From assembly GCA_045603485.1 (NCBI GenBank), contig JAZUMF010000005.1, positions 40,784 through 104,783 of the forward strand: DNA of 64,000 bases, in the 5' to 3' direction. Positions 32,353 through 63,094 of the stretch are shown in pieces. Position numbers and translations under genes: made by a program. This stretch comes from Kiritimatiellia bacterium. GTDB taxonomy: Bacteria > Verrucomicrobiota > Kiritimatiellia > RFP12 > JAAYLN01. How positions within the stretch are numbered: position 1 is the stretch's first letter; each line of letters begins with the position of its first letter. The notes under the pieces were generated by a model. It ran no database searches, was not told where the DNA came from, and saw only the letters and a program-made list of their open reading frames with translations.

Positions 32353-32365
32353 TCAAGATATACCA

Positions 32366-45249: not shown

Positions 45250-45265
45250 AGTGGGAGAAGGCTGT

Positions 45266-49199: not shown

Positions 49200-49212
49200 G
49201 GAGGCTCCGCTC

Positions 49213-52200
49213 ATGGATGCAGGACCGGATGCACAGCATGGTGTAAATACAGGCGTTGTGGAATCCAAATACTATGTGGATGTATGGTTGCCGGACGCTA
49301 AAGACTATCCGGGGTTGAGAGGAGCAAGTCCCAAAGTCCAAGAGGCATTGGGTCTAGGCCTTGGACTTCCAGATAAACCTACAGTTGTTCCACTTGGTGA
49401 AATAGAAATTAATCTTAAGCCTCGGTTCTATAAGCGAAACGAAAAGAATCTTGATATTGATAGTGAATCGGTCGCGGCCATTTCGTTTTCGGAAGATTTC
49501 GCGAAGCAGTGTAATTCCAATGATGTGGCCGTTCTTGCAATGATGGGTGGGGTTCTTCCTGCAGGGAAGAATTTCTTTAGAATGGGTTTTTCCGTTGAAA
49601 CTATTGCGGCCATCATTGGAGATCAGATTATTAATGATAATGACGGACGGGTGTCTCATGTTTTTTTGATTCGTGTGGATAATGATCTTGGAAATGAATT
49701 TGAACGAGCATTCTCAAGGGCGGTGAATGCCCCAAACCAAGGGCGTTCTTTGGATATACTCAAGATTGATGAGAACGGTACCCCCATTACTAAGAAGATA
49801 CAAATTACGCCGACGGACGAACAGGTGGCACGGAATACCTCAACGAATGAGGGTGTTATTAGTAAATGGTTGACTAGTTGTATTAAAAATCCGGAACACC
49901 CAAGAAATCAAGGCCTGAGATCTGTTGTCATATATGGATATTGGGAGCAATATTGGAATTTCGTAATAGAAGTATTAAGATGCAAAGCCTTTTGTAACGA
50001 CGAAGATTGGTTATATGTTGAGTCAAATTACCCGCTACATTATCCCTTTATTCTTTATGAAGCACGACATGTAGATGATTTAGATCAAGATGATTTGCAA
50101 AATTTTACTAAAGAACGCACTGATGATATTATTCCGAGATCGGTGGAAATTACGAGTTCGGGAAAAAATAATAAAAGGATAATGGGAGATAAAAAACAAG
50201 AGAAAACAGGAGGTGAAAGTCCAGAGAAACCGCCGGAGAGTGTGTTTCACCCTCAGAAGGGGAATTTGCAAAACAACAATGAAGACGAAAGGGATTTCAA
50301 TATATTTAATGAAAAGAAAATGGCTCATGCGAGTACGATAGCTCATGCGATCAAGAATAGGGATGAACCTGAAGAAGAGCATCAAAAAGAATCTAAGGAA
50401 CTCAGTCAAGAAAAGCTTATGCCGAGGGAACTTAAGCGAATTCGTTGTATAACGGGTAGACTCGTTAATGATGGTGAAAGTAGTTTCATTACATTTGCGA
50501 AGGAAACGGTTCGCCTGCTTCGTGCTGCTATTAGGGACGCTCATGAAAAAAAGGGAAAAGCGCAAGATCGGACCATCAAATCTATACGAGAATGCATATG
50601 CAAGTTTTTGGCAAATAGTAAGTTCTATGCAGCGGAACATCTAGGGTCTTTCTTTTTTCGAAAAGATGGTGAATTGTTTTTCCCTCTCTACCTCTATAAC
50701 GGAAAGCTTGAGCGACAAAGAATCGTCAGAGAGTCTTGTTGTAAGGGTGATGAATTCACAAAGGAGGCTATAGCCGATCAATTACTACAACTATCTAATT
50801 CTCTGAACAAGATAACGCGGGCTGAAATCCCCCGCAACCTTAAGGTAGGCAATTCGGATGGTGCTAAGAAGGTATTTGAGGAATTCAGTAAAATAATTGC
50901 TGACATCTCAAAGGGAATTGAGATTAAGTTTGTAAGCTATTATCCTAATACAGAGCACCTGTTCTATACATGGACAGATACGCAGGAGGGAAATGTTGAT
51001 AAGACGGAGCGATTTATCAATGTTAGCATTTTTGATGATGTTTGTAAAAAAATACAAGGTGTAATCCAGATTAACTTAAAAGATTTTGATTTGGAAGATA
51101 ACGATGCATATAGAGTATATTTGGTCTACGAGAGGACTGAAAAAGTTTTTGATGCATTAACTCTGGCGGAGTGGTGGAATACACAAAGCAATGATTGCCA
51201 GGCGACGATTATAGCTGGGAATAAAGGTTGGGAGAGATGTCTATTGCCTGTTAAGGCGGTTGTGTTTGCCAAATCAAGGATTGGGAAACAAGACGGTCAG
51301 ACGGATGAGGGTATGTCTGAAAACGAGTATAAAGATATTATAGACAATGCCAATTATGCACACTACTACCGCGACTGCGACGGCCATGAAAGCAAGTTCA
51401 AGTTTGATGAGATTTTAAGTGGTCTTTGTAAACTTCTTGGGTGTAGTGGAGACAACGGCAATTCAGAATCAGATGCCCGTTTTTTATATTATATTCCTGA
51501 ATATATTCCGGAAGACAACAAACCTGAAGGCAATAATAGTTACAAGATAGGTGGGCAAGGCGGAATCGTTATGGCGACTTGTTGCAAGTTGTCTTTGTTT
51601 GATTTGCAAATTGTTGAGAATATGGTCTCCCACATTTTTTCTAAGCTAAAAACATGTTTGGCAGAACATGATGTCCTCCTTTCAAATATAAAATCTGCCA
51701 TTGGCTCCATAATGTCTCGCAATGGTTCTCATAACATTGGTAGCCATGTATTGGCGGCACTGTCGCACAATGTGGGAACATTGCCGGATGATAGGGTGTT
51801 ATATCAGTATATTCAGCAGCGGATGGATTATATTGCAACGGTGACGACGGACTTTCCGACATGGACGCAACCGACAATGTTTGTAGCCGATATGATGAAA
51901 ACTTTTTTATCGCAGAGGCATTTATTAGATCATATTGTGGAGAGCGAAGGGTTGCATGCATTTCAGTTTCAAAATCCTAATATGACGGATGAGGAGTGGG
52001 CGGCTCAAGAAAACTGTGTAAAGATTTATGTTAGGAAGTTAGATGGTGATGGAAGTGTAAAGGACTTCATTGAATATGAAAAGGGTAAACGAGAACTTCC
52101 CATTGATTTGACTAATGATGTTGATTTAGCAATTCCCGGGGGAATAATTGGTGAACATGCGTTCTATACGATTCTTGAAAATATAATTCGGAATGCCGCG

Positions 52201-54687
52201 AAACATTCTTGGGCGAAGATTAAACAATGGCAAATAAGGCAAAACGAAATTGAGTTGCAGTATAATAATTTGGAGCTTTTCATTGATTTTGAAGAAAAGG
52301 ATGATGAGGTTAAGTATAACGTTTATGCAAAGTTGCCGATGGCTCAGGTAGTTGTGGAAAAATCTAAAGCTGACAATAAATTATGTCAGAAGGTGATTGC
52401 TTCAGAACAACTGATTAAATGGAAGGAAAAGTTTGATGATATGGGTGTAGTGAAAGCAAAGGAGGAAAATGCTTTTAAGGAGCTGCCAGATTATGAACAG
52501 GAACAGGTCAAACTACATTTGGCTAATCTCAAAGACGATCCACTTAAAAAATGGGTAGATAGATATGACAAACAAGGCGGATTGACATCTGATGAGCAGA
52601 AGGAGTTTGATTCATTGGCGATTCATCATAAGCAACAAGTTATGTTGGCGAGGCCTTTTATTGATTCGCAGGGAGCACTTCGTCGTGAGAATTGGGGTAT
52701 GGCAGAAATGAAGATATCGGCAGGATATCTCGCTGGCGAATCTATTGAGGCGATAGGGGGTATTGGAGACAAAAAAGGAAGTAATGAAATTATAACGCCA
52801 CGCATCAAATCAGAAAAGGTCAAGAGGAAATGTATAGAATCAGGGGAAAAAGTAACAGAAATTGAGGTCGAAGAACTATATTTAGGCTATGAATTTTCTA
52901 TTGCCAAACCCAAGGAAATATTGATTATAGTTGCGGAGGAGCTGAATAGGGAAGGAAAAGACGATGAATGGGGTAGTGAAAATATTCGTAATGAATTAAA
53001 AAAGCATGGGATTTTTGTTAAGACAGTTAGCGAGATAAAACAGGAGAACCGTCTTAATTACAGGTATGTAGTTCATTATAATGCACGTGAGTTGTTTGAT
53101 AAAAATTATCATGTTAAAGATGATGTTTTATTGCCGTTTAGAGTGTTAAGTGTGGCGGATATTGAGGATGAAAGGCTTAAAGATTTTATTCCGACAATAG
53201 ATATAAGTAAACTAAAAGAGTGTTTCGAGAAGGGCACTGAAGATCCGAAAAACGGAATTCAAAAACTTGTCTACGATACTTATCTTAAACATTTTTTGTC
53301 ACAACGGAGTGTAGATAATATTGGTCTTTTGGTTGCGATAAATGAAAATGAGAAATCTGGCGGAAATAGTTTGATTTCGGATGCGGATATTCTTGAATTG
53401 ATGCTTGAGCAGAATTTTGCTGTGTGCGTAGCTCAATACAAGGAATTTGCAGCTAACGAAGATAAGATTATTAAGTGTTTAGAATCGATTCGTCATAAAA
53501 GTAGTGCTAAAGATACAGTAATAAAGTTTAAGCACTTCTCAAATAAGACGATAAGGGAATTGATTGCACAACGTATGTGCGATTGGGCTGGAAAGTCTAA
53601 TGATTCATGGATTCCAATAGTTGAACATTTGCGTAAAAAGTATTTCGTATCAGATGCTGAGAGCGAAACTTCCAATGAGCTTAAGCCAAGTAATAATGAA
53701 ATATCAGTTGATTTTGCAGCAAGTGTAAATTCTCTGTCGCAAAAACATCCGATTGATGATTTTATCCGTTATGTGGAATCGATTTTTGAAAATACAAAGA
53801 AACTGTTTAAACAGTATGAAGAGCAGATTGTGACGTTGCCGGCAGGGTATAAGGTTCAATCTTCTGATGTTGGAGAAGGGGCGTCGCTTATAGACGGGAT
53901 TAAGATTATTACATCAGCAGAGAAAGAAGAACTTGAAAAAGAAAAAGATCGCCACTGGATTGGGTATCGCCGTCATGCTCATACGCTACCTGTTGATGAT
54001 TCCAAGAGACTTTATGTTGAGCCGTTAAGCGGAACTCAGACATACTTGTCACAATTGGCGAGAGTAAAAACCGATCTTGGATTGCAAATGCGTCTTATAG
54101 AAAATGGCCTTATGCGTATTCTTGTTCTTGATGAACGAGTTGCGAAGTTCCTTCGTGAGCATCAAAAGGAAGTTGGCCCGCATTATAAGTCGATGAATAT
54201 CCATGTCATTGATCACGAATGGGTTGTTGCTGGTGGAGAAACTCCTCCTGAGGGTTTTTACGGAAAGTTTACTTCTGTGCACAAAGAAGCGTTGAAATCA
54301 TTTGTAAAACCGAAAGATTCTAATGATGGTGAGAATAACCAAAATGGGAATGCCGATGTGAGCTCGAATTCGAACCTTACTATGTTTGATGATGTTGACA
54401 TCTTAATCGTTCATCAGGGGATTCTGGATAAATGGTACCCTGAATTCAAAAATCGTAAGGATATGTGGAAGTTATTGGAAGGGTTCAAGAAATTAGTGAA
54501 ATATGTTGTCGTGACTACTGGTCGAGGGACTCCGGAGAACATACCTGAAGAGACTCATCTGTTGCCGTTCGCCGTCGTTGAATCTACACTCTTTAAGAAA
54601 TATCCAGAGAAGTTGATCTTAACAGATACTATCATGAATGTCCTTCCTGTTGGGAAGAAGAACGACAACTCTGGAGGCCAAAAATGA
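49213..54687 (+). CDS. Giant (1824 aa) cytoplasmic protein with a histidine-kinase-type GHKL ATPase N-box and a degenerate receiver-like C-terminus; AT-rich
   Basis: ATG 49213 lies 10 nt after AAGGAGG, which overlaps the PBP stop. N-box-like LENIIRNAAKHS at about 52176-52210. An upstream H-rich motif SRNGSHNIGSHVLAALSH at about 51712-51765. C-terminus RILVLDERV...DILIVHQGILD...YVVVTTGRG. No Walker A and no TM helices found. The nucleotide composition is visibly AT-rich compared with the flanks. Confidence 0.6.
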   Translation: MDAGPDAQHGVNTGVVESKYYVDVWLPDAKDYPGLRGASPKVQEALGLGLGLPDKPTVVPLGEIEINLKPRFYKRNEKNLDIDSESVAAISFSEDFAKQCNSNDVAVLAMMGGVLPAGKNFFRMGFSVETIAAIIGDQIINDNDGRVSHVFLIRVDNDLGNEFERAFSRAVNAPNQGRSLDILKIDENGTPITKKIQITPTDEQVARNTSTNEGVISKWLTSCIKNPEHPRNQGLRSVVIYGYWEQYWNFVIEVLRCKAFCNDEDWLYVESNYPLHYPFILYEARHVDDLDQDDLQNFTKERTDDIIPRSVEITSSGKNNKRIMGDKKQEKTGGESPEKPPESVFHPQKGNLQNNNEDERDFNIFNEKKMAHASTIAHAIKNRDEPEEEHQKESKELSQEKLMPRELKRIRCITGRLVNDGESSFITFAKETVRLLRAAIRDAHEKKGKAQDRTIKSIRECICKFLANSKFYAAEHLGSFFFRKDGELFFPLYLYNGKLERQRIVRESCCKGDEFTKEAIADQLLQLSNSLNKITRAEIPRNLKVGNSDGAKKVFEEFSKIIADISKGIEIKFVSYYPNTEHLFYTWTDTQEGNVDKTERFINVSIFDDVCKKIQGVIQINLKDFDLEDNDAYRVYLVYERTEKVFDALTLAEWWNTQSNDCQATIIAGNKGWERCLLPVKAVVFAKSRIGKQDGQTDEGMSENEYKDIIDNANYAHYYRDCDGHESKFKFDEILSGLCKLLGCSGDNGNSESDARFLYYIPEYIPEDNKPEGNNSYKIGGQGGIVMATCCKLSLFDLQIVENMVSHIFSKLKTCLAEHDVLLSNIKSAIGSIMSRNGSHNIGSHVLAALSHNVGTLPDDRVLYQYIQQRMDYIATVTTDFPTWTQPTMFVADMMKTFLSQRHLLDHIVESEGLHAFQFQNPNMTDEEWAAQENCVKIYVRKLDGDGSVKDFIEYEKGKRELPIDLTNDVDLAIPGGIIGEHAFYTILENIIRNAAKHSWAKIKQWQIRQNEIELQYNNLELFIDFEEKDDEVKYNVYAKLPMAQVVVEKSKADNKLCQKVIASEQLIKWKEKFDDMGVVKAKEENAFKELPDYEQEQVKLHLANLKDDPLKKWVDRYDKQGGLTSDEQKEFDSLAIHHKQQVMLARPFIDSQGALRRENWGMAEMKISAGYLAGESIEAIGGIGDKKGSNEIITPRIKSEKVKRKCIESGEKVTEIEVEELYLGYEFSIAKPKEILIIVAEELNREGKDDEWGSENIRNELKKHGIFVKTVSEIKQENRLNYRYVVHYNARELFDKNYHVKDDVLLPFRVLSVADIEDERLKDFIPTIDISKLKECFEKGTEDPKNGIQKLVYDTYLKHFLSQRSVDNIGLLVAINENEKSGGNSLISDADILELMLEQNFAVCVAQYKEFAANEDKIIKCLESIRHKSSAKDTVIKFKHFSNKTIRELIAQRMCDWAGKSNDSWIPIVEHLRKKYFVSDAESETSNELKPSNNEISVDFAASVNSLSQKHPIDDFIRYVESIFENTKKLFKQYEEQIVTLPAGYKVQSSDVGEGASLIDGIKIITSAEKEELEKEKDRHWIGYRRHAHTLPVDDSKRLYVEPLSGTQTYLSQLARVKTDLGLQMRLIENGLMRILVLDERVAKFLREHQKEVGPHYKSMNIHVIDHEWVVAGGETPPEGFYGKFTSVHKEALKSFVKPKDSNDGENNQNGNADVSSNSNLTMFDDVDILIVHQGILDKWYPEFKNRKDMWKLLEGFKKLVKYVVVTTGRGTPENIPEETHLLPFAVVESTLFKKYPEKLILTDTIMNVLPVGKKNDNSGGQK

Positions 54688-55280
54688 AATATTATGTCTT
54701 TATCGCAAGAGACGAGGAAGAGTTTTCGCGCTATCCTCAAAGTGGGTTTCAGGAGCTGAAGAGGGATTTTGCAAAAACGATTCGCCATAAGGAGATGGGA
54801 GACTCATATTTATTGATTATATCAAGCGATGTGAAGCCTAAGAATGCAGAATCGGATGAAGATGTTAAGATGATGTGTTTTAAGGTTGCAGCTGCGATAA
54901 AGTTAGTAAATACAAATTACGATTATGCAGCAGGTAATGATTGTGTGCATATTTTTGTTCATGTGGGTGGAGAAGGTAGTTGTGGCTTAGGGAAAATGGA
55001 GGAAAGTCTAAAAAAGAAGGTTGGAGAAATAAAGGAAAATTGGAAAGTTTTTCTTTTAAGTTCAAGCTGGCGCTGGAGAATTGATGTCAAGCAGTCTATG
55101 ATTAGATTGCCTAATAGAGAAGGGGAACTTGATGTTCTTGTAAAGCGGTGCGAGATGGACATTGCCGCTGAGATTTTAAAAGGATTTAAGGCTCGTTATA
55201 GTACTACTGAGAAAAAAGATTGCTATGATAAAATCTGTGAAAAGCTTTCCATTGTTAAGATTGAGGAGAAGAGAAAATGA
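54684..55280 (+). CDS. Small hypothetical protein (198 aa), possibly a degenerate receiver/flavodoxin-like fold
   Basis: ATGA overlap with the upstream and downstream genes. Alternating beta-alpha pattern: YYVFIARDEE, YLLIISSD, VHIFVHVGG. No recognisable catalytic motif. Confidence 0.45.
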   Translation: MKYYVFIARDEEEFSRYPQSGFQELKRDFAKTIRHKEMGDSYLLIISSDVKPKNAESDEDVKMMCFKVAAAIKLVNTNYDYAAGNDCVHIFVHVGGEGSCGLGKMEESLKKKVGEIKENWKVFLLSSSWRWRIDVKQSMIRLPNREGELDVLVKRCEMDIAAEILKGFKARYSTTEKKDCYDKICEKLSIVKIEEKRK

Positions 55281-58200
55281 GCAATGGCAGAAAATTAAAT
55301 CTTTTTATTTTTGACTTGGCACAGCATGGAGAACTGACAAACCTAGTACTGTGGCAAGTAGCTAAGATGTTTGAGATGAGGTGTGGTATCTGTGTTGCTT
55401 CTTATTCATGGTGTGCGCCTTTAAAGAAAGAGAAATTTATTCCTCTATTTCTTTGCAATTCGTATGATGAGATTAGGGCGCATGGTTTTAATGTGCCAAG
55501 AGAATTTGTCTTTGAGGTTGGATTGAATCCTAATCCTAATTATATTGATGATCCAGATAATCAACCAGAGATGTTGTGTGAGATCTTAGGGGATAAGATA
55601 GAAGATCGGTTAAGTCTGTATAAGGAGTTAGAAATAGGTGTAAGTTTTGAGGATGTTAAAGACTGGTGTGTCGGTGCGTTTCGTAGATATTTGTTTATGG
55701 ATGATGATGTTCACGGAACATCGGGGACTTTTTCTATTTCGGAATTAATGAAATGCAACAAAGAAACAGGCTTGAATGTTGATGATAAATATTGGCAAAA
55801 ATGGTTTGGGGAATTCGGTGATGACAAAAATAAATTTAACAGAGAGATGTTGCGGGCTAGATTCGGAGTTGGCGTGAAAAATTCAAGTGACAGTACAACG
55901 CAAAATCCAAAGGAAGATGATCCGCTCAGAAATTATAAGGATGTATTGTCGGTTGTGTTTGAGGAAGAATTTAGGTGCATAAAAGCAGACGTTATTGAGA
56001 ATCCGGGCGAAAGCTATCAAAGAGTAAAAGATTTTTTTGAGAAGAAGTTTCCAAGTCAGCAAGGTCTTGCATTAAAATTTATTTCTCCATGCGGAAAGAT
56101 ACGTGTACTTGTTGTAGATGATAATGCTACAGCCGAAGTTGAAAGTCTTAAAAGTAAAGAATCGTTGTCTAATATTTTTGATTTTGCTCCGTTGGATTTG
56201 AAGAAGCGAGATGATGAATCTTCGAATCAGTTTATAAAAAGATCCATAGGCGAGATAAAAAATAAATCTAAGGAATGTGTTGATGTAATTTTATTAGATC
56301 TAAGCTTAGGCGAGGCGACAGGTTCTGATTTGACTGGCTATCATCTGATTAAGAGATTTAAGCAATGGATGCCGACGGCCTATATCATTATTTATTCTGA
56401 ACATGAGGATATGGGGCATATTGTTCGTGCGTTCAGAGAGGGTGCCGATTGGTTTTTGAAAAAGAGCGAAGCTCAAGAAAAACTTGCGCGTCATTTTATT
56501 TCGTTGATGGCGAATCGCAAATGGAGAAAAGAATTCGGCGTCATCAGACCGAAATATGTTCTTGATATAAAAGGCAAGGATGAAAATTTTATCGCCAAAT
56601 TCAATGTAAAAGAGGTATGGCAATATTTGACAATAAAAAGTCTGGAATTATTGCCGGGACATTATATCAAGATAAATAAGATGGGGGGCGGTATCAGTTC
56701 GGCTGTCACATTCCGAGCGCAGAAAGGCATTACAAGAGATACTGAAGATAATCAGGCGCCCGTAATCATCAAGATAGATTCTGTTTTTAATACGAGGATG
56801 GAATATGAGCGTTATTTCCGCTTCATTCGACCGTATATTGCCAATGAGTCGGGGCGGATAGAGAAGCGTGAAATAGTTCTCAATAGGGATAGCGCCGCGA
56901 TTGTTTATACATTTACAGGGCGGCGAGATGCTGCACATGAACTTAACACCTTGGACGAACTGCTGCGCCGCGATATGTTATCGCGTGAAACTTGCGATTA
57001 TGAAAAATATCGCAAGATGTTTAATGCGCTGTTTGATGAGATCACAGCGCGTCTGCACAGGGTGACTCCAGTCGCAGAATTCAGGGATTTAAAGACAGAT
57101 CCGGAAGAGTTGTCGGAGTTTTCTGATTATCCCAATCGCACATTTGGAGAATTGGAGAGTGATTCTATATCATCCTCCGATCAAGGTCATAAATCTTGGT
57201 TTTTCTCGAATTTTACATATAGAATGCCGATAGAGAGTGTTGCTGAAAAGTTTATAATAAGTGAAGGCTCAAGCAATCCGAATGAGGTATATGAAGTTTA
57301 TGGTATCCAGAAGGATGACTTAGGTAAGAATTCCGCTAAATACCCTTATACTTATGTTATTGAATGTCAGCGATATAAGATTAAAACTGAAAATGATAAT
57401 AAAGAGTTGCATCAAAAGGTGTTGCTGAAAGGCGATTTAGCGTCATATTACGCCCGTTTTAGGACACATCTTTGGCCGGGAATGTTGCTGTCGATAAAAC
57501 TGGGGGAAGGTCAAACATTAAATGAGAACGAACTTATGTCTTGGTGCTTTTGTTTCTGCGCCAATAAGAATTTATATCAAATCCGCGCTGAAAAGACAGA
57601 AGATGGCTCTAAACAAGAGGGATGTTTCCGGATATCTAAAAAGCTTTATAATAAGATGGCCGGATGGTTTAAGGATAAAGAAAACCGATACTTAATAACA
57701 GTTCGTGACGCGCTGAAAAAACTTGTCGATGAGGAGCCGCACAGATTTGTGTGTCCGGTTGGTATTGTGCACGGCGATTTAAATCTTAAGAACATTATGA
57801 TTGAATCCCGGGTCAATCCACCGAAAGAAATTCAAGCAGACATAACGAAGGTTTTGTCTGATGTGTGGCTTATAGACTTTGCTCGGACGCGGCGAGATGT
57901 CGTAGCACATGATTTCAATGTCGCTTTTACATCAGTACTTCCGTTGCTCTTTCAGCCGGATCTCGTTGGGACGCATGAGAAGGGTAAACCGTTTGAGCAG
58001 AATGATGAGCAGAAGAAATACGTCGAAGAATTAGATGAAAAACTTGAACCGTATTTGCGCCATGTTCTCTTTGACAAGTATGATACTTTGTCGGATTTGT
58101 TTGCGGAAGATCAGCGACTTGTTTTCATGTACAAGATATTAAGAAGAATCCGTAAAGCGGCACTTGCGACGGGGATGTCGGAGGATATGTATCTACTGAC

Positions 58201-58354
58201 GACAGCACTGACATGTTTGTATTCGTTTAAACTGTATTTAAAACAAGGAATGCCGGAAGCCGCAACAGCACTTGTAATGGCGGGATTGCTTTGCGTGGAG
58301 AAGTTGAATCCGCCAGATGACTGTTTCGAAGCATCTAATCAGAAAACATTATGA
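55277..58354 (+). CDS. Receiver (REC) domain fused to a eukaryotic-like Ser/Thr protein-kinase-like domain (1025 aa)
   Basis: REC: VLVVDDN (56101-56127), VILLDLSL, IIIYSEHED, DWFLKKS. Kinase: G-loop KMGGGISSAV, beta3 VIIKI, catalytic loop HGDLNLKNIMI (57769-57803), and DFG-like LIDFARTR. Confidence 0.7.
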   Translation: MSNGRKLNLFIFDLAQHGELTNLVLWQVAKMFEMRCGICVASYSWCAPLKKEKFIPLFLCNSYDEIRAHGFNVPREFVFEVGLNPNPNYIDDPDNQPEMLCEILGDKIEDRLSLYKELEIGVSFEDVKDWCVGAFRRYLFMDDDVHGTSGTFSISELMKCNKETGLNVDDKYWQKWFGEFGDDKNKFNREMLRARFGVGVKNSSDSTTQNPKEDDPLRNYKDVLSVVFEEEFRCIKADVIENPGESYQRVKDFFEKKFPSQQGLALKFISPCGKIRVLVVDDNATAEVESLKSKESLSNIFDFAPLDLKKRDDESSNQFIKRSIGEIKNKSKECVDVILLDLSLGEATGSDLTGYHLIKRFKQWMPTAYIIIYSEHEDMGHIVRAFREGADWFLKKSEAQEKLARHFISLMANRKWRKEFGVIRPKYVLDIKGKDENFIAKFNVKEVWQYLTIKSLELLPGHYIKINKMGGGISSAVTFRAQKGITRDTEDNQAPVIIKIDSVFNTRMEYERYFRFIRPYIANESGRIEKREIVLNRDSAAIVYTFTGRRDAAHELNTLDELLRRDMLSRETCDYEKYRKMFNALFDEITARLHRVTPVAEFRDLKTDPEELSEFSDYPNRTFGELESDSISSSDQGHKSWFFSNFTYRMPIESVAEKFIISEGSSNPNEVYEVYGIQKDDLGKNSAKYPYTYVIECQRYKIKTENDNKELHQKVLLKGDLASYYARFRTHLWPGMLLSIKLGEGQTLNENELMSWCFCFCANKNLYQIRAEKTEDGSKQEGCFRISKKLYNKMAGWFKDKENRYLITVRDALKKLVDEEPHRFVCPVGIVHGDLNLKNIMIESRVNPPKEIQADITKVLSDVWLIDFARTRRDVVAHDFNVAFTSVLPLLFQPDLVGTHEKGKPFEQNDEQKKYVEELDEKLEPYLRHVLFDKYDTLSDLFAEDQRLVFMYKILRRIRKAALATGMSEDMYLLTTALTCLYSFKLYLKQGMPEAATALVMAGLLCVEKLNPPDDCFEASNQKTL

Positions 58355-59031
58355 CACCTAAACGCATAATCCTTGTTCGCCACGGTGAATCGGAGGCGAA
58401 TGTCGATCCGACGGTGTATGCCCGCGTGCCGGATTGGCGGATTGCACTTACAGCAACTGGTGTTGAGCAGGCTCGGGATGCTGGGCGGAAGATTGCGGGA
58501 TTGATTGGCGGCGAGTCGTTCGGGGTGTTCAGCTCGCCGTATGTGCGAACGGAACAGACCAAGGACGCGATGCTGGAGGGAATGGGGCGCGAGCCGGTGT
58601 TTGACTACCAAGATCCAACTTTGCGCGAACAGGAATACGGCAACATGCCGCCGACAGATGAGAACAATGCGAACCGTGAGTTCCGCAAGAAGTTCGGCTA
58701 CTTTTTCTACCGTTTCCCGAACGGTGAATCGTGCGCCGATGTCTCGGATCGTATCACGCTCTTCCTTGACTCCCTCTATCGCCGGTTTGAGCGCGACACG
58801 TGTCCCGAGAACATCATCATCGTTTCCCACGGCACGGCTATCAAGTGCTTCCTTGCTAGATGGTATCATTGGTCGATTGCAAAGTTTGATACCATTCCCC
58901 AGTTGCCAAACTGCCATGTTAGTGTGATGAGACGAATTGATGGGGATGTGCAACGCGCTTCTTCGCAGTTTGAATTGCATGAACCATTTGAAACAGTATG
59001 CTGTTTCTCAATGAAAGGTAAAGAACAATGA
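58351..59031 (+). CDS. Histidine phosphatase superfamily (PGM/SixA branch) protein
   Basis: N-terminal RIILVRHGESEANV (RHG catalytic motif) and a downstream SHG. ATGA overlap with the kinase gene. GC-rich, like the host. Confidence 0.75.
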   Translation: MTPKRIILVRHGESEANVDPTVYARVPDWRIALTATGVEQARDAGRKIAGLIGGESFGVFSSPYVRTEQTKDAMLEGMGREPVFDYQDPTLREQEYGNMPPTDENNANREFRKKFGYFFYRFPNGESCADVSDRITLFLDSLYRRFERDTCPENIIIVSHGTAIKCFLARWYHWSIAKFDTIPQLPNCHVSVMRRIDGDVQRASSQFELHEPFETVCCFSMKGKEQ

Positions 59032-60935
59032 CAATTGTTCAAGATCAGTTTGACGCATCGTCCTTCCAAGTTCCGCCGAAAGTCGGGAAGTCTGGAATGT
59101 TGGGCGACCTGTCGGGTGCCCTGCAGGTGTTAAACCGTGTTGCGTTTAGCATTGGATGGATACTGTTGGCCATAGCGGCTCCGCTTGCATGGGGCTTCTT
59201 GCCGTTTGGTTATGAGAAACTTAAGGAGAGCGCCGAAATCAGCGCGGTGCCATCGCTGACAGTGTGTATGCGAATGACTTTCGCTGCTTTATTCTCGCTT
59301 GCTGTGCTTGCCGTCTGGGTGGCTATAGGCAAGGCTGTGTATCGTGGGTGTGACGGAGACGTGCCTTGGTTTAAGAAGATGTTACGAGAAACGCGGGAAG
59401 CCTTAAAGCGTCATTGGCGGCCACTCCTTGCGTTGCCGGTTCTTTATGTTGTCGCGCGCATATTGGAAATGGAATTGTTGTTGAACGCATCGCGGATTGG
59501 GGTGGAAGGACCATTCGGCGGCGCATTGGAGCAATACGGATATTTTCTGGGATTGCTTTTGATAATACTTTTGCCTACGGCCAGATTGCGTAATTTTTCC
59601 ATCGTGGATATGCTTGTGTGGACAGTTACTGTGGTTATGGTTTTCGCTAGCGCAGTTCTGAATCTGACTGCTCGCGTCCATGTTGCCCACTGGAATTCTG
59701 TTTACATAATGACCGTCATGGCGTTTGCCGTGGCTGTGATAGGGCTTTTCTCTGCACTTGTAAAGACGGCAAGTGGCTTTGCGGCGGAGTTCTCGGAAGA
59801 TGTCAGCAAACATCGTTTTGCTCCAGCCATATTTGCCAGCATGGTCGTGAACATGGTAATGGCTGCAGGGGCGGCTGTGTTGTCTATTCTGTATCTGATT
59901 GTCTATTTTGCTGCAAAGGGCTGGAAGTGGATGTCGTATGGCGATAAGATCAAATATTCGATGAGCGATGCATTGCCCGCATATTTCTCAGATGGAAAAT
60001 GGTTCTGGTTTTTGATTGTAATTGTTGTTGTGGGATCGTTGGTTGCGCCGATTTGCCAGTTGGCGGGTGTAGCGCTACACGATGCGGCAATAAGGAATCG
60101 CAAATTATCGAAATATGGCATATCTGGCAGGGACTGGCTGATAGTGTGTGGCGGATTTGAGCCTATGTTTGTGGTCCTGATCGGCATTTGTTCTGGTGCA
60201 ACATTCATAAGCAATTTCTCGATAGCGCTCTCGTTTGGCCTTGTGCTTGCGATTGGCTTGCTCAGGGTCGTGAAGGTGTGGAGTGCGAAGAATACAGTCC
60301 TCAGGAATGGTATCTTTACCCATATTCGTGGCAGTTCAAGAGGCCCTGATTCGACCATGTCTGAGGATGATTTGCTTCTGCGCGCGGAAAAACTAGCTCT
60401 CCTGAAATTCTATGACAAGCGCCGCGAATTTAGGGGAACAAGGTTGGGTGTGTGGCCCAAACCCGCTTTGCTGCGTGATCTTATCGACAGGCATGATGCG
60501 GTTAAGGATTTCTTATCTGCTGCTACAACGCAGGAAGTTCTATGTGGGAGAGAGCCTTTTTATACGCCGCTTATAGGCGGTGAAGTCTTCTTCACGCAGG
60601 ACGATCCTTTCACTCATGATGTTCTCTCTGCCCAATTCGCTTGGCTCAAACGGCGGCATCCGGATGTTGATGTGACGTCCTTCAGCTATTTGCTAAAGCG
60701 TTTTTGCAGTGAATCCGCTGGATGGAATGGCAAGTTGGGGTTGAAGAGCCTGGCTTGTGCTGGCGAACCGAATGCAACGCCATATATAATCATCCCGAGA
60801 AACCTGAAGGCGGCGACGGGCTTTTGTAGTGACTGGAACAAACTCCTTGCAGTCCTTCATGGAATCGTTGACAGAGAGGAAATACCTCAATATGTCAACG
60901 CCTTGATGTTGGATGCAAAGAACATTGATGACTGA
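59028..60935 (+). CDS. Polytopic membrane protein (about 8 TM) with a 300-aa C-terminal cytoplasmic domain of unknown function
   Basis: Hydrophobic helices throughout the first 330 aa. ATGA overlap with the phosphatase gene. Confidence 0.5.
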   Translation: MTIVQDQFDASSFQVPPKVGKSGMLGDLSGALQVLNRVAFSIGWILLAIAAPLAWGFLPFGYEKLKESAEISAVPSLTVCMRMTFAALFSLAVLAVWVAIGKAVYRGCDGDVPWFKKMLRETREALKRHWRPLLALPVLYVVARILEMELLLNASRIGVEGPFGGALEQYGYFLGLLLIILLPTARLRNFSIVDMLVWTVTVVMVFASAVLNLTARVHVAHWNSVYIMTVMAFAVAVIGLFSALVKTASGFAAEFSEDVSKHRFAPAIFASMVVNMVMAAGAAVLSILYLIVYFAAKGWKWMSYGDKIKYSMSDALPAYFSDGKWFWFLIVIVVVGSLVAPICQLAGVALHDAAIRNRKLSKYGISGRDWLIVCGGFEPMFVVLIGICSGATFISNFSIALSFGLVLAIGLLRVVKVWSAKNTVLRNGIFTHIRGSSRGPDSTMSEDDLLLRAEKLALLKFYDKRREFRGTRLGVWPKPALLRDLIDRHDAVKDFLSAATTQEVLCGREPFYTPLIGGEVFFTQDDPFTHDVLSAQFAWLKRRHPDVDVTSFSYLLKRFCSESAGWNGKLGLKSLACAGEPNATPYIIIPRNLKAATGFCSDWNKLLAVLHGIVDREEIPQYVNALMLDAKNIDD

Positions 60936-60954
60936 CGGCGCAAGGAGTGTTATC

Positions 60955-62436
60955 ATGCGATTCTCATGGATTAAGATTTTTTTCACGCCGTTGAGGGGGA
61001 TTAAGAACCTCTTTGGGCTGCTTACGACGTGCCTGTTTTGTCAGCAGACGCTTACGCTGCTTTTTCTGATGTTTTCCATCTGGACTCTAGGTGCTGCATA
61101 TGCCTTCTTTTATCTTCACGATCCGAATTGGGGTCAATGGAGTTTTGTGCATCTTTTTGATTTGACAGAGACACGTCGAACGCTTAATGAGTCATCTGGA
61201 GTCGGGAAAGCGGTCGCCGTTCTGCTATATGGCGTGACATGGCTTATTGGTGGCGGCATCCTGTTGGGCGTTATTGTGGACAGAAGTGCGCGTTTCATGT
61301 CAACGGTAAGAGATGGCCATGTCCGTTATCGTCGTGCATTGCGCGATCATTTTGTGATATTGGGATGGGAGCCAAATGTAGTATCCCTTTTGCGCAACCT
61401 TTCTGGAGGTGGTCGACTGCTATCTTTTTTTTCGTTGCGCGCTTTGTTCCGGCCGAGGATTGTCATCTTGTCAGAATGCCCTGCGGTGGAAATTCACCAG
61501 CAGATAGCAGAGGCATTTGGCCGCAGTTTCTTTAAGGTACTTCCTTTTGGGCTGATTGTGTACAATGGGGCTTATGATGCGAAAGACGAGTTCAAGATGC
61601 TGGTTTTGCGCTATGCGCGCAAGATATATGTGACAGGAGAGGAACCAGAGGCCTCGCATGATTCAAGAGTGTTGCTGTTCCTTGCAAGCCTTGAGGCTTT
61701 TTTGGGGAAATATAAACCGAGACAGCGTATTAACTGCCATGTTCGCATTGCTTCTTATTCGCTTTTCAGGCTTTTGGTGTTGTCGATAAACAAGGGATCG
61801 CCCGTTGGCAATCATAAGTACGAGTATCTGACCGTCCGCTTTTTCAACTTCTACGAGAATTGGGCCAAACGACTATTCTCGGAAAACCCTGCGAATGGTC
61901 GTGCATATCCATCAGTGGTGTTTAGACCTGACGATGGTCAGAGCCGTGTTCGTGTTGTTGTCGTAGGGTTTGGCAAAATGGGGCAGGCGTTGATTGTGGA
62001 GATCCTTCGTTCCCATCCGCAAAGGAAAGGACGAATGATTGACATTGTGGTTGTTGATCCCGATGTAAATGTTCTCCGAAAGCAGTTCATGATGTCGCAT
62101 AGTGACATAGCGACGGGCGAGTACATGAAGCACGCGACTCTTAGATTTGCCAAGGCGATGCGAGTGGAGGATGCCGCATTTCGCAACATGATCAAGCGTT
62201 TCGAGGCGGAAGGAGACCAAATTACTGTCATGTTGACATACAACAGCCCTGACGATGTAGTCGTGAGGGCGGTTGCGCTTGCCTCCAAATATAAATCTGC
62301 CAATATCTTTGCTCGGCTAAACATCGCCGTACCAGATGTGGACAAGTGCAGAGATGTTGTTGCAGAAAGCTACAATTTGAACCGGCTTTACCTGTATGGA
62401 TTTAAGGATGGTGCTGGGTTTGGGAAGGAGATTTAG
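60955..62436 (+). CDS. Membrane-anchored protein with two TrkA-N/RCK-like Rossmann domains
   Basis: Two N-terminal TM helices, then HFVILGWEPNVV and later VRVVVVGFGKMGQALIVEIL...IDIVVVDPD, both glycine-rich beta-alpha-beta NAD(P)-binding-like motifs. The ATG at 60955 follows AGGAG; the ORF track start at 60913 overlaps the previous gene. Confidence 0.5.
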   Translation: MRFSWIKIFFTPLRGIKNLFGLLTTCLFCQQTLTLLFLMFSIWTLGAAYAFFYLHDPNWGQWSFVHLFDLTETRRTLNESSGVGKAVAVLLYGVTWLIGGGILLGVIVDRSARFMSTVRDGHVRYRRALRDHFVILGWEPNVVSLLRNLSGGGRLLSFFSLRALFRPRIVILSECPAVEIHQQIAEAFGRSFFKVLPFGLIVYNGAYDAKDEFKMLVLRYARKIYVTGEEPEASHDSRVLLFLASLEAFLGKYKPRQRINCHVRIASYSLFRLLVLSINKGSPVGNHKYEYLTVRFFNFYENWAKRLFSENPANGRAYPSVVFRPDDGQSRVRVVVVGFGKMGQALIVEILRSHPQRKGRMIDIVVVDPDVNVLRKQFMMSHSDIATGEYMKHATLRFAKAMRVEDAAFRNMIKRFEAEGDQITVMLTYNSPDDVVVRAVALASKYKSANIFARLNIAVPDVDKCRDVVAESYNLNRLYLYGFKDGAGFGKEI

Positions 62437-62437
62437 G

Positions 62438-63094
62438 ATGCAAAAGCTTGAAGAGCGTGTTGAAAAAATACGAAATCCTATGACATCCCGACTAAGGGAG
62501 TTTGCCGATGCCATGGGGCGGGAACTTGCGGAAGCGTGTAGCATTCCTGGCGCACATTATATCCTTGGCGGGGCGTTAGGGTATAACGCGTCTTTGGTGG
62601 GAAACTATGATATTGACTTGCGATTGTTGATTCCCAACGCGGGGAAGAGCCATGAGGAAGTGCGGCGGCAGATTGACGCGGTGAAGGACTTGCTGGCGGC
62701 GCGGGCGAAGGACGATCCAACATTCAAGATAAAGTTCATCGATGAGGGCGGAACGAACTACATCTGGCACACGAAACAGATCGTGAAGGTTCCGGGCATC
62801 CCTGGCAATCCAGATGTTGAGTTGACGTGGAACATCCAAGCAGAAAGTACGTACAAGAGTATCGCCGAGATGGCGGCGCGTCTGCCGAAGAGGGTAATCG
62901 ACCGCTATGTTGTCGAGAAGTGGAACGCGCAGCAGGCAGGCAAGGAGGCTTACAAAGCCCTCAAGGGCGAATGGAAGGGGATGATCAACCGTTTGATCGA
63001 TAAAGGCGCTCGAAAGATGGATGATGAGTCCTTGCGTGAGTTGCTGGATTCAGTAGCCAGTCAATATTCAAAGTTTTTGAAAGAAAGGAAATGA
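62438..63094 (+). CDS. Minimal nucleotidyltransferase (Pol-beta superfamily) with helical C-terminal domain
   Basis: LGGALGYNASLVGNYDIDLRLLIP fits the G[GS]x(9-13)DxD nucleotidyltransferase signature (62564-62633). ATG 62438 lies 2 nt after the previous stop, with an RBS (GGAAGGAG). Confidence 0.55.
   Translation: MQKLEERVEKIRNPMTSRLREFADAMGRELAEACSIPGAHYILGGALGYNASLVGNYDIDLRLLIPNAGKSHEEVRRQIDAVKDLLAARAKDDPTFKIKFIDEGGTNYIWHTKQIVKVPGIPGNPDVELTWNIQAESTYKSIAEMAARLPKRVIDRYVVEKWNAQQAGKEAYKALKGEWKGMINRLIDKGARKMDDESLRELLDSVASQYSKFLKERK

Follow-up and report, generated by a model that had tools for sequence, protein, structure and literature searches.

A receiver–TCAD9 kinase protein encoded in a hypervariable four-gene cassette of gut Kiritimatiellia

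Genes and features of the locus

In the analysed window, a 64,000-nucleotide stretch from a Kiritimatiellia bacterium, four translationally coupled genes form a cassette that is set into a Liv-type ABC-importer operon of gut Kiritimatiellia. The cassette encodes an anchored solute-binding protein (SBP), a giant protein, a small protein and a protein that joins a response-regulator receiver (REC) to a kinase-like domain (REC-kinase). In the window, consecutive genes overlap at their start and stop codons, beginning with the SBP gene and continuing into the downstream genes. The following features were identified:

42005..45249, + strand: livH/livM/livG/livF-type ABC importer genes (two BPD_transp_2 permeases, two ABC_tran ATPases)
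45092..46702, + strand: gene with Schlafen/AlbA_2, HATPase_c_4 and winged-helix domains (Pfam), a variable insertion outside the core cassette
48078..49199, + strand: membrane-anchored SBP (Peripla_BP_6, Pfam E 6.2e-26), first cassette gene
49186..54687, + strand: cytosolic giant, 1833 aa from a TTG start (ATG at 49192), with a variable N-terminal region of ~790 aa, a core that resembles histidine kinases and an alpha/beta domain conserved at the C-terminus
51595..52908, + strand: histidine-kinase-like core of the giant, made up of a long DHp-like helical hairpin and, after it, a GHKL alpha/beta domain
51685..51980, + strand: hyper-conserved motif of the giant, SAIGSIMSRNGSHNIGSHVLAALSHNVGTMPDDRVLYQYIQHRMDYIA, with three invariant His
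53896..54648, + strand: C-terminal flavodoxin-like alpha/beta domain of the giant, with invariant polar motifs YxEPLSGxQ, RILVLDER, ILIVHQG, VVVTTGRG and PEK
54684..55280, + strand: small alpha/beta protein of 198 aa, third cassette gene, with an invariant His in a 'FIHWGGG'-type motif (IFVHVGGEG in the window)
55277..58354, + strand: REC-kinase gene, ATG start, 1025 aa (N-domain, REC and TCAD9 kinase)
55277..56062, + strand: N-terminal conserved domain, aa 1-262, with motifs IPLFLC, PREFV.E and RDW..GAFR.Y.F.D..VHGTSG
56078..56512, + strand: REC domain, aa 268-412, with D281/D282, acceptor D341 (codon 56297-56299), S374 and K396
56663..58312, + strand: protein-kinase-like domain (TCAD9; APH/choline-kinase branch), aa 463-1012, catalytic features intact
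58351..59031, + strand: histidine-phosphatase-superfamily (branch 1) enzyme, His_Phos_1 E 2.6e-30, translationally coupled to the kinase gene
59028..63094, + strand: three overlapping downstream genes of the same transcription unit, a conserved flank 76-98% identical to loci L001 and L009

Pfam matches were obtained for three of the four liv ORFs, namely the permease at 42005-42889 and both ATPases; the second permease (42886-43755) was assigned from the BPD_transp_2 genes of related loci that it matched by tblastn. In every related locus with a gene table that extends far enough, the livHMGF genes adjoin the cassette, and in L018 they form a tightly overlapping operon with it. The SBP, which begins with the hydrophobic anchor MKIKKNLLLVVIPTVTVLAFVIFFAC, is encoded upstream of the giant under the same limit of coverage and directly adjacent to it in most loci. 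At the position of the Schlafen-type insertion, other loci carry DUF1016/YhcG, ATPase_2/DUF234, ADP-ribosylglycohydrolase or radical SAM genes.

The small-protein gene sits between the giant and kinase genes in 12 loci. L003-5, L010, L012 and homologues P0014/17/18/23/26/28 have the protein fused ahead of the REC-kinase, at its N-terminus. No Pfam match was obtained for the small protein, and it has no detectable similarity to REC.

Of the 14 loci with gene tables, 10 have the His_Phos_1 gene directly 3′ of the kinase gene (L001, L002, L006, L007, L009, L014-L016, L018 and the window); it is absent in L003-5, L008, L017 and L019. Its product, a candidate antagonist phosphatase, is 68-92% identical between loci and thus belongs to the conserved flank. 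Of the products of the three genes that follow, one is a membrane protein with 9 TM segments, another has 2 TM segments and a pair of Rossmann-like GxGxxG motifs, and the remaining one is small and resembles Pol-beta-type nucleotidyltransferases. None has a Pfam match, and they are tied to the cassette by position only.

Domains of the REC-kinase

The ORF at 55277-58354 is real. Its start codon overlaps the stop codon of the preceding ORF within the sequence ATGA, and at the other end its stop codon overlaps the start of the ORF that follows. As judged from its sequence, the product is a cytosolic three-domain protein composed of an N-domain, a receiver with a canonical phospho-acceptor site and a TCAD9 kinase whose catalytic residues are intact. 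The fusion of a receiver to a kinase, proposed in the original prediction, is borne out to the extent that a phospho-acceptor-competent REC is joined to a kinase-fold domain with intact catalytic residues. The architecture is rare, as had been suggested: a search of 1.84 billion cluster representatives gave only 82 matches at E ≤ 1e-30.

The REC domain is genuine, with D282, D341, S374 and K396 invariant across 29 homologues; PorX and RssB were the top structural matches of this region. The kinase does not start about 250 aa after the receiver, as first stated; the Gly-rich loop follows the REC end by ~57 aa and the catalytic loop by ~420 aa. Ahead of the REC, the ~260 N-terminal residues, initially described as a ~250-aa region of no assignable function, did remain without a match in family searches including Pfam. 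However, they form a conserved domain with five residues invariant across the REC-kinase family (W130, R136, D142, H146 and G147). This domain also occurs in the short stand-alone proteins P0230, P0233 and P0238, which have no Pfam matches.

The full set of kinase catalytic signatures is present and invariant across the family. It includes a Gly-rich loop KMGGGISSAV (469-478), the ATP-binding K499 (VIIKID), a helix-C Glu at E509/E511, the catalytic loop HGDLNLKN (832-839, with HGD 832-834 at 57770-57778, and N839) and the metal-binding D867 (IDFA). A variable, partly beta-rich stretch of ~225 aa (601-825) joins the N-lobe to the catalytic loop. Conservation is highest in the N-lobe and catalytic core (0.70-0.72, compared with 0.36 in the N-domain and the variable stretch), which, at the level of sequence, argues for an active enzyme.

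The kinase domain scored 73.3 bits against Pfam TCAD9 (PF19974; cutoff 40). Among the 29 family members, TCAD9 was matched by all 29, and weaker matches were obtained to APH (27), EcKL (20), Kdo (12) and Choline_kinase (9). The window protein itself scores below the gathering cut-offs of the APH, choline kinase, EcKL and Kdo-kinase families (for APH, 13.7 against 23.2). Its closest relatives by both sequence and fold are choline kinase and aminoglycoside phosphotransferases, which are small-molecule kinases, and no Hanks-type Ser/Thr kinase is found among the nearest ones. The AF2 models used in the analysis were of moderate quality (pLDDT 76 and 79). TCAD9 belongs to the aminoglycoside-phosphotransferase/choline-kinase branch of the protein-kinase-like fold.

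These results do not support the assignment as a eukaryotic-like Ser/Thr kinase. The complete and invariant catalytic motif set and a very weak catalytic-loop match to AAK1 in a PDB-sequence profile search (E ~0.8) would fit a Hanks-type kinase, triggered by D341 phosphorylation and acting on cellular or phage proteins as a toxic or regulatory effector. However, Pkinase and PK_Tyr_Ser-Thr were matched by none of the 29 members even at E ≤ 1, the catalytic loop is of the Brenner type (H-G-D-x4-N) rather than HRDLKxxN, and an APE motif or activation-segment signature is absent, the DFA being followed by an APH/ChoK-like RTRRDxxAHDFN. We consider this alternative improbable. An APH-like fold in an antibiotic-resistance context had been named at the outset as evidence against the prediction; the fold is indeed APH-like, but no such context surrounds the gene. 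The APH fold also occurs in enzymes that are genuine kinases of peptides and proteins.

The giant protein and the putative relay

The giant has no transmembrane segments and no match in Pfam, NCBIfam or PADLOC. Across loci it aligns only over its C-terminal ~1040 aa. At least 797 homologues carry variable N-termini, including SAM and DNA methyltransferases. The SAIGSIMSRNGSHNIGSHVLAALSHNVGTMPDDRVLYQYIQHRMDYIA region is the sole part of the giant conserved at the nucleotide level (72-84%) in all 18 loci. Its residues H849, H854 and H861 (TTG-start numbering) are invariant columns in 75 to 120 giants and are candidate phospho-His residues.

The giant, small protein and REC/TCAD9 protein co-occur in 17 of the 18 related loci. 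In L017, which lacks REC/TCAD9, the neighbours of the giant are REC proteins of other kinds, namely an NtrC-like regulator and a single-domain REC.

A different reading is that the giant is a GHKL ATPase, a Ser-kinase (PDK/BCK- or SpoIIAB-like) or a scaffold rather than a histidine kinase, with the REC phosphorylated by an unlinked kinase or acetyl-phosphate, or serving as a phosphorylation-independent dimerisation or docking module. This would agree with the lack of HisKA matches, a best HATPase_c E-value of 0.24 in one of 13 members, the missing G1 DxGxG box, low AF2 confidence over the His motif (pLDDT <50) and the His that occupies the receiver Asp position in the flavodoxin-like domain (ILIVHQG). 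However, the invariance of the acceptor Asp and all four remaining receiver active-site residues is unexpected for a phosphorylation-independent pseudo-receiver, and the giant is the only kinase-like gene that co-occurs with REC across loci. We therefore regard such a pseudo-relay as rather unlikely.

Variability, possible role and comparison with known systems

The cassette is mosaic, hypervariable and highly divergent between genomes that share 82-98% identity in their flanking genes. Between loci, protein identity is 22-27% for the SBP, about 32% for the giant and 33-51% for the kinase, compared with 92% for His_Phos_1 and 82-98% for the downstream genes. LivH/M are 98% identical to those of L014, and livG/F only about 72%. 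Recombination breakpoints were located at 57743 (within the kinase gene), 58351 and 44536, and the GC content is 0.37-0.43 over the cassette against about 0.49 in the flanks. The distant relatives P0192, P0216 and P0221 carry Sa_NUDIX (SMODS-associated NUDIX), and P0246 carries the nucleoside-phosphorylase domains Glycos_transf_3 and PYNP_C. Overall, this is a rare, uncharacterised and fast-diversifying four-gene signalling cassette of gut Kiritimatiellia.

Choline, N-acetylhexosamine and methylthioribose kinases phosphorylate nutrients for trapping or catabolism. By a metabolic reading, the importer and SBP would take up a nutrient (an amino compound, sugar derivative or osmolyte) for phosphorylation by the APH/ChoK-like kinase, with His_Phos_1 as a pathway phosphatase or mutase, REC and the giant only tuning the process, and variability reflecting between-strain substrate diversification. 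The strict livHMGF and SBP linkage, the overlapping operon in L018, small-molecule kinases as closest structural neighbours, the coupled phosphatase/mutase-family gene and the exclusively chromosomal location without defence-database matches all favour it. In contrast, a giant of 1.1-1.9k aa whose N-terminus is swappable and may be a methyltransferase or DNA methylase, a three-domain kinase of 1000 aa and Sa_NUDIX-fused relatives are atypical of a catabolic pathway, and the operon contains no other conserved catabolic enzymes. Furthermore, the extreme divergence (22-51% protein identity) and the intragenic breakpoints suggest diversifying selection rather than a simple change of substrate. The metabolic alternative appears unlikely, though not remote.

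The reading we favour, at a probability of roughly 0.55, is that His-Asp phosphotransfer controls the APH-like kinase, within a system that is diversifying and may be related to conflict. A cue would be read by the variable N-terminal region of the giant and/or relayed from the SBP and ABC transporter, in a manner comparable to BceS. The giant would then autophosphorylate on H849, H854 or H861, and the phosphoryl group would pass to D341 of the receiver, which may release or re-orient the kinase domain. The kinase could use ATP to phosphorylate a substrate that is likelier to be a small molecule, nucleotide or peptide than a protein Ser/Thr in the Hanks sense, and the co-transcribed His_Phos_1 phosphatase may return the product or the relay to its initial state. 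Against this reading stand the absence of a histidine-kinase signature in the sequence of the giant, for which a PDB sequence search also gave no matches, and the low modelling confidence over its His motif.

Compared with housekeeping, a diversifying role in recognition or conflict (defence-like) appears more likely; hypervariability, domain swapping, adjacent defence-type insertions such as Schlafen/AlbA_2 and DUF1016, and relatives with Sa_NUDIX or nucleoside-phosphorylase domains point in this direction. The defence reading proper is weak, because the PADLOC search gave no defence-system matches, no plasmid or phage copies were found, the chromosomal locus is fixed and the linkage to the ABC importer and SBP is strict. 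Such linkage is unusual for anti-phage systems.

Literature searches returned no experimental work on TCAD9 and no description of a response regulator with an APH/ChoK-type kinase output. Like CheB, PleD, RssB and PorX, the REC-kinase fuses a receiver with a complete active site to an enzyme domain, but it has an extra N-terminal domain ahead of the REC. It differs from the APH, choline kinase, EcKL and Kdo-kinase families in its ~225-aa variable stretch, its REC and N-domain fusion and the lack of resistance-gene context. In the BceAB-BceS type, the small membrane histidine kinase BceS works with a DNA-binding regulator and an ABC transporter of the exporter class. In contrast, the cassette combines a soluble giant with a Liv/HAAT-type importer and its SBP, and a kinase serves as the output; any physical coupling of the giant to the transporter is putative.

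TCAD9 (PF19974), 'ternary complex associated domain 9', was defined from vWA-MoxR-VMAP NTP-dependent conflict systems (Kaur, Burroughs, Iyer & Aravind 2020, PMC7159879), an association reflected in its name (PMC7159879, PMC10910872). Rare active APH-superfamily kinases and sporadic receiver domains are mentioned among the effectors of these systems (PMC7159879), and KINtaro counts TCAD9 as a protein-kinase-like family. The kinase domain in the window is a clear TCAD9 member, but it is wired to a histidine-kinase-like giant, a small protein and an ABC importer, and no vWA, MoxR or VMAP genes lie near the cassette in the window or in loci with gene tables.

The defensive two-component system Detocs comprises the histidine kinase DtcA, the stand-alone receiver DtcB and the receiver-effector DtcC, with swappable effector modules that include a nucleotide-directed PNP effector, an ATP nucleosidase (Rousset et al., bioRxiv 10.1101/2023.01.24.525353). 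No sequence relationship to Detocs was found (no PADLOC match); the middle protein of the cassette has no detectable receiver domain, the cassette has a kinase as effector where Detocs has an ATP nucleosidase, and it is tied to an ABC importer and SBP. Both share a three-gene logic of large sensor kinase, small middle protein and REC-effector, and the NUDIX and nucleoside-phosphorylase domains in cassette relatives recall the Detocs PNP effector.

A receiver domain fused to a kinase of the APH/choline-kinase branch

The predicted open reading frame was recovered at 55277-58354 on the forward strand, with an ATG start and a length of 1025 aa; at its 5' end it overlaps the stop of the 198-aa ORF before it, and at its 3' end the start of the ORF that follows. 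Pfam searches assigned two domains to the encoded protein (REC-kinase), Response_reg at residues 332-404 (36.2 bits) and TCAD9 at residues 469-881 (73.3 bits). The Response_reg match (PF00072; gathering threshold 30.2 bits, E = 7.6e-9) is limited to profile positions 40-107, owing to divergence in the domain's first third, and was obtained in 29 of 29 homologues. The domain has the (beta-alpha)5 fold of a CheY-like receiver, and every receiver residue originally named was found, giving a complete active-site quintet: the acidic pair D281/D282 after beta1 (LVVDDN), the acceptor D341 after beta3 (VILLDLSL), S374 after beta4 and K396 after beta5. In an alignment of the 29 homologues (33-90% identity), D282, D341, S374 and K396 were invariant and D281 was at least 90% conserved.

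The kinase catalytic signatures were also present and invariant across the family. They comprise a glycine-rich loop (KMGGGISSAV), the ATP-binding residues K499 (VIIKID) and E509/E511, the catalytic loop HGDLNLKN (residues 832-839) and the metal-binding D867 (IDFA). The original prediction placed the kinase about 250 aa after the receiver; the domain in fact begins approximately 57 aa past it, and between its N-lobe and the catalytic loop stands a variable, partly beta-rich stretch (residues 601-825), which puts the loop far downstream. The N-lobe and catalytic core were the most conserved parts (0.70-0.72), the N-terminal domain and variable stretch the least (0.36), a pattern that fits an active enzyme with variable recognition surfaces. 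A Pfam scan of stand-alone N-domain proteins gave no matches.

The assignment to eukaryotic-like Ser/Thr kinases did not hold. Hanks-type kinases carry an HRDLKxxN catalytic loop and a DFG...APE activation segment. In REC-kinase the loop reads HGDLNLKN, IDFA is followed by RTRRDVVAHDFN (RTRRDxxAHDFN), and no APE is present. The Pkinase and PK_Tyr_Ser-Thr profiles of Pfam matched none of the 29 family members even at E <= 1, NCBIfam gave no Hanks-type match for REC-kinase, and no Hanks kinase appeared within the top 60 structural neighbours of the domain. The Hanks-type class was thus rejected by profile, motifs and structural neighbours alike.

The TCAD9 match (PF19974), by contrast with these profiles, passed its gathering threshold of 40 bits. 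The catalytic loop corresponds to the Brenner motif HxDxxxxN (H832-G-D834...N839), and the predicted structure shows a bilobal protein-kinase-like fold with a helical C-terminal subdomain, nearest to APH/ChoK structures; ChoK, APH, LxmK and TvaE were the only kinase-domain neighbours within the top 60. Secondary Pfam matches among the 29 members were to APH (27), EcKL (20), Kdo (12), Choline_kinase (9) and RIO1 (6). For REC-kinase itself, none of the APH, Choline_kinase and EcKL profiles reached its gathering threshold (APH 13.7 against a cutoff of 23.2; EcKL 15.1 against 22), so these matches are weak yet recurrent across the family. NCBIfam returned only sub-threshold REC matches and a faint Kdo-kinase match, and a PDB sequence search with the kinase family profile gave only weak REC matches and a chance-level match to the AAK1 loop.

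An aminoglycoside-phosphotransferase-like enzyme in a resistance context had been named as the competing reading. Its fold was borne out, being of the APH/ChoK type, and its context was not: the neighbourhood holds neither antibiotic-resistance genes nor genes of a known small-molecule pathway, and tblastn searches of plasmid and phage collections found no copy of the kinase. The empty searches likewise give no support to a mobile-element origin. The REC-TCAD9 family is small, with 82 matches at E <= 1e-30 among 1.84 billion cluster representatives, and exact look-up of the window proteins returned neither names nor accessions. REC-kinase is a receiver with a complete, invariant active site fused to an intact kinase of the APH/ChoK branch.

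Genomic context and linkage of the cassette

The gene is the last of a four-gene cassette located within a Liv-type ABC importer operon.

Genes of the cassette and its neighbourhood
Upstream of the cassette: livH, livM, livG and livF, followed by the inserted gene
45092-46702, forward strand: inserted gene between livF and the SBP gene, with Schlafen/AlbA_2, HATPase_c_4 and winged-helix domains
48078-49199, forward strand: solute-binding protein (SBP; Peripla_BP_6) with an N-terminal hydrophobic anchor
49186-54687, forward strand: giant, a soluble protein of 1833 aa
54684-55280, forward strand: small protein of 198 aa, no family match
55277-58354, forward strand: REC-kinase
58351-59031, forward strand: phosphatase-family gene (His_Phos_1)
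59028-62436, forward strand: two membrane proteins downstream of His_Phos_1, one with 9 TM segments and a soluble C-terminal domain, the other with 2 TM segments and two Rossmann-like GxGxxG motifs
62396-63094, forward strand: nucleotidyltransferase-like protein of 232 aa with the Pol-beta-type motif GGALGYNASLVGNYDIDLRLL

Start-to-stop overlaps run throughout 48078-63094, indicating that these genes form one transcription unit. A role of the SBP as a cytoplasmic AmiC-like sensor was considered and rejected, since the hydrophobic anchor was present in 7 of 7 SBPs (the window and six related loci). The 9-TM and 2-TM proteins had no Pfam match, and the latter, with its GxGxxG motifs, may be RCK/TrkA-like; in one related locus (L006) they seem to be joined in one protein of 1104 aa. 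The 232-aa protein gave a faint NCBIfam match to a CBASS oligonucleotide cyclase (E = 0.075); each related locus checked that extends far enough downstream has a homologue of it (49-82% identity).

The gap between livF and the SBP gene is occupied in other loci by DUF1016/YhcG, ATPase_2/DUF234, ADP-ribosylglycohydrolase or radical SAM genes, and in locus L014 a Schlafen/AlbA_2 homologue lies between livG and livF. The gap looks like an insertion hot spot for genes of the defence-island type. PADLOC matched none of the eight proteins scanned from the cassette and its surroundings. Elsewhere the window carries housekeeping genes, among them the transcription-repair coupling factor Mfd/TRCF (33674-36922, reverse strand) and the [FeFe]-hydrogenase maturase HydF (32324-33568, forward strand).

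Linkage was assessed from the contexts of homologues of the kinase, homologues of the giant and four genome hits. In an HMM scan, the giant, the small protein and REC/TCAD9 co-occurred in 17 of 18 related loci, including L018 and L019. A gene of its own encodes the small protein in 12 loci; in five (L003-5, L010 and L012), as well as in six database proteins, the small protein is fused to the N-terminus of REC-kinase. One of the fused proteins (P0026) begins MKYYVFIARDEEEFSRY, exactly as the small ORF of the window does. The small ORF is thereby linked to REC-kinase by a Rosetta-stone fusion. The single exception is L017, where two unrelated proteins (278 and 736 aa) stand after the giant and small protein in place of REC-TCAD9, with an NtrC-like regulator and a single-domain REC alongside. 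In every locus with a far-reaching gene table, livHM(GF) and an SBP gene lay upstream of the giant, the SBP gene mostly directly adjacent; in the two most distant loci, L017 and L019, livHM(GF) and an NtrC-type sigma-54 response regulator are transcribed divergently from the SBP-giant genes. All genome hits were Kiritimatiellia MAGs from animal guts. REC-kinase is therefore genetically locked to the HK-like giant, the small protein, the anchored SBP and the Liv-type ABC importer. At the end of the Kiritimatiellae locus L010, the family profile finds its REC part again in a second ORF (22218-22784; E = 1e-49), which may be a second copy of the system, approximately 9 kb downstream of the first.

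The giant and the mosaic structure of the cassette

The giant had no Pfam, NCBIfam or PADLOC match, and only its C-terminal ~1040 residues are conserved across loci. A profile of this part retrieved at least 797 proteins with differing N-termini, which were class I SAM methyltransferases, an N6_N4 DNA methylase or none recognisable; one homologue carries a Lentisphaerae label. Sequence signal for a histidine kinase was absent: HATPase_c matched one of 13 giants, with a best E of 0.24, and a PDB sequence search with the giant profile returned nothing meaningful. The predicted structure nevertheless has the histidine kinase fold, a DHp helical hairpin and, after it, a GHKL (Bergerat) ATP-binding domain. 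Among the matches listed for this core were NifL (9.3), CheA (9.0), BceS (9.0, 212 residues across DHp and CA), PDK2 (8.4) and BCKDK (7.8), with PrrB, KdpD, ThkA and HK853 as further matches.

The motifs are partly canonical. The N-box ENxxRNAxKH (ENIIRNAAKH in the window) is invariant, as is a G2-like motif, NWGxAEM. In place of the G1 DxGxG box there is just an Asp (YIDF), and a variable insert occupies the ATP-lid region. A hyper-conserved motif at the hairpin, SRNGSHNIGSHVLAALSH / SAIGSIMSRNGSHNIGSHVLAALSHNVGTMPDDRVLYQYIQHRMDYIA, holds three invariant histidines (H849, H854 and H861, numbered from the TTG start) and had no HisKA-family match. The ~300 nt encoding it (51685-51980) keep 72-84% nucleotide identity in all 18 related loci and are the sole stretch of the giant conserved at the nucleotide level in all of them; the motif is the most conserved of the giant, yet its local AF2 pLDDT is below 50. 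The HK-like label thus has the backing of fold and motifs but not of family membership.

The C-terminus of the giant (53896-54648) forms a flavodoxin-like domain with invariant YxEPLSGxQ, DER, HQGxxDK, TTGRG and PEK motifs. Its strand order is receiver-like, but a His (ILIVHQG) stands at the position of the receiver's acceptor Asp. It may be an uncharacterised enzymatic domain or a pseudo-receiver. A shared REC ancestry of the small protein, the kinase N-domain and the giant C-domain, or kinship among them, was considered and dropped, as profile-profile comparisons were all insignificant; the best, giant C-domain versus REC, had a P-value of 0.0036 and 9% probability, and hhalign found no REC similarity in the small protein (probability 0.3%). 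The N-terminal ~790 aa of the giant (49192-51500) had no family match. No more than a handful of giants (P0034-P0039) share this part, at ~60-80% identity; their C-terminal halves diverge far more, implying shuffling between the two halves.

Identity between the window and loci L001/L009 differs sharply between flank and cassette.

Protein identity, window versus L001/L009
His_Phos_1 (flank): 89-92%
Three downstream genes (flank): 76-98%
SBP (cassette): 22-23%
Giant (cassette): ~32%
Kinase (cassette): 33-51%

Compared with L014, livH and livM were 98% identical and livG and livF merely ~72%. Nucleotide comparison revealed recombination-like breakpoints at 44536 (versus L014), 57743 (versus L001) and 58351 (versus L009). 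The second lies inside the kinase gene, just upstream of the HGD catalytic loop, where identity to L001 rises to 91%; the kinase C-lobe thus travels with the conserved flank, while the remainder of the gene is divergent. Block 54397-58930, whose start is a further such breakpoint, is common to the window and L018, in which livG and livF are fused and the giant is otherwise shorter and unlike that of the window. The GC content is 0.37-0.43 over the cassette versus ~0.49 in the flanks. Taken together, the identity split, breakpoints and GC drop establish the cassette as hypervariable and mosaic, a recombining, fast-diverging unit at a fixed chromosomal site.

Proposed role and comparison with known systems

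The original observation proved essentially correct. The interpretation built on it holds in outline, with a phosphorelay that would gate a kinase and a partner that is HK-like, but its kinase class does not hold. The giant would autophosphorylate on one of the invariant histidines (H849, H854 or H861), and the phosphoryl group would pass to D341 of the receiver, whose phosphorylation would gate the kinase. A small molecule, nucleotide or peptide is the likelier candidate substrate than proteins in general, and His_Phos_1 could reset the system. Input may come through the variable N-terminus of the giant and/or the transporter. The cytosolic subunits LivG and LivF lie in the variable block, and transporter-coupled kinases of the BceS type are the best structural matches across DHp and CA. 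We rate the system as a relay of the two-component type whose output is unprecedented and whose kinase partner is atypical.

Among more distant REC-TCAD9 proteins, P0192, P0216 and P0221 carry a C-terminal SMODS-associated NUDIX domain, and P0246 ends in Glycos_transf_3 and PYNP_C, which is nucleoside-phosphorylase-like. Such additions are nucleotide-directed and typical of conflict systems. P0192 belongs to L019, where the SBP, giant, small protein and REC/TCAD9 are arranged as in the cassette.

A diversifying recognition or conflict function is favoured over nutrient metabolism; the strict importer link, the empty PADLOC scan and the fixed chromosomal position call for caution. Our fullest reading, to which we give a probability of roughly one in four, is that the cassette might represent a new type of diversifying system, for conflict or for self/non-self recognition, in gut bacteria of the PVC group. 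The atypical HK giant would read a strain-specific cue, imported or sensed through the ABC importer or a swappable N-terminus, and a His-Asp relay would pass it to an APH-type kinase acting on a nucleotide, small molecule or peptide. The logic would be Detocs-like, with the kinase in place of the NUDIX and nucleoside-phosphorylase effectors of relatives, and allelic cassettes would be exchanged by recombination at the fixed locus.

The system is uncharacterised, rare and anatomically unusual. Receiver-controlled enzymes are known, but to our knowledge a receiver controlling an APH/choline-kinase-type phosphotransferase has not been characterised before, nor has the TCAD9 family itself. The giant would widen the sequence space of HK-like proteins: it has at least 797 homologues, and Pfam HK models recognise none of them. 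The cassette shows extreme, mosaic divergence while staying at a fixed locus, is strictly paired with an ABC importer and SBP, and has relatives with nucleotide-directed effector domains. These three properties make it tractable as a candidate new signalling or conflict system, in a gut phylum that has been little studied. Should the kinase's substrate be a nucleotide or imported compound, transporter-coupled sensing, phosphorelay and small-molecule phosphorylation would be joined in an undescribed way.

REC-kinase differs from Hanks-type Ser/Thr kinases in each of the three respects compared, namely profile, motifs and structural neighbours. It resembles APH/ChoK enzymes in fold and catalytic motifs, but it scores below their family thresholds and lacks a resistance context. 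KINtaro, in its family listing, gives TCAD9 as a protein-kinase-like family, and a figure legend in PMC10910872 derives the name from vWA-MoxR-VMAP conflict systems. The paper on those systems describes rare active APH-superfamily kinases and sporadic receiver domains (PMC7159879); the accessible supplement text does not mention TCAD. Our search found no experimental study of TCAD9, and for TCAD9/PF19974 it turned up only that legend and a database listing. REC-kinase is a bona fide Pfam member of the family but comes without the ternary-system partners: no vWA, MoxR or AAA+ genes were found near the cassette in the window or in loci with gene tables.

Detocs consists of a sensor HK, a stand-alone REC 'buffer' and a REC-effector, mostly PNP (bioRxiv 10.1101/2023.01.24.525353). 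PADLOC gave no Detocs match for the cassette, in a release that may not include Detocs models. No homology between the two systems was found, the middle protein of the cassette is not detectably a receiver, and its effector is a kinase. The likeness lies in the order of an HK-like protein, a small protein and a REC-effector, and in the swapping of effectors among relatives of the cassette.
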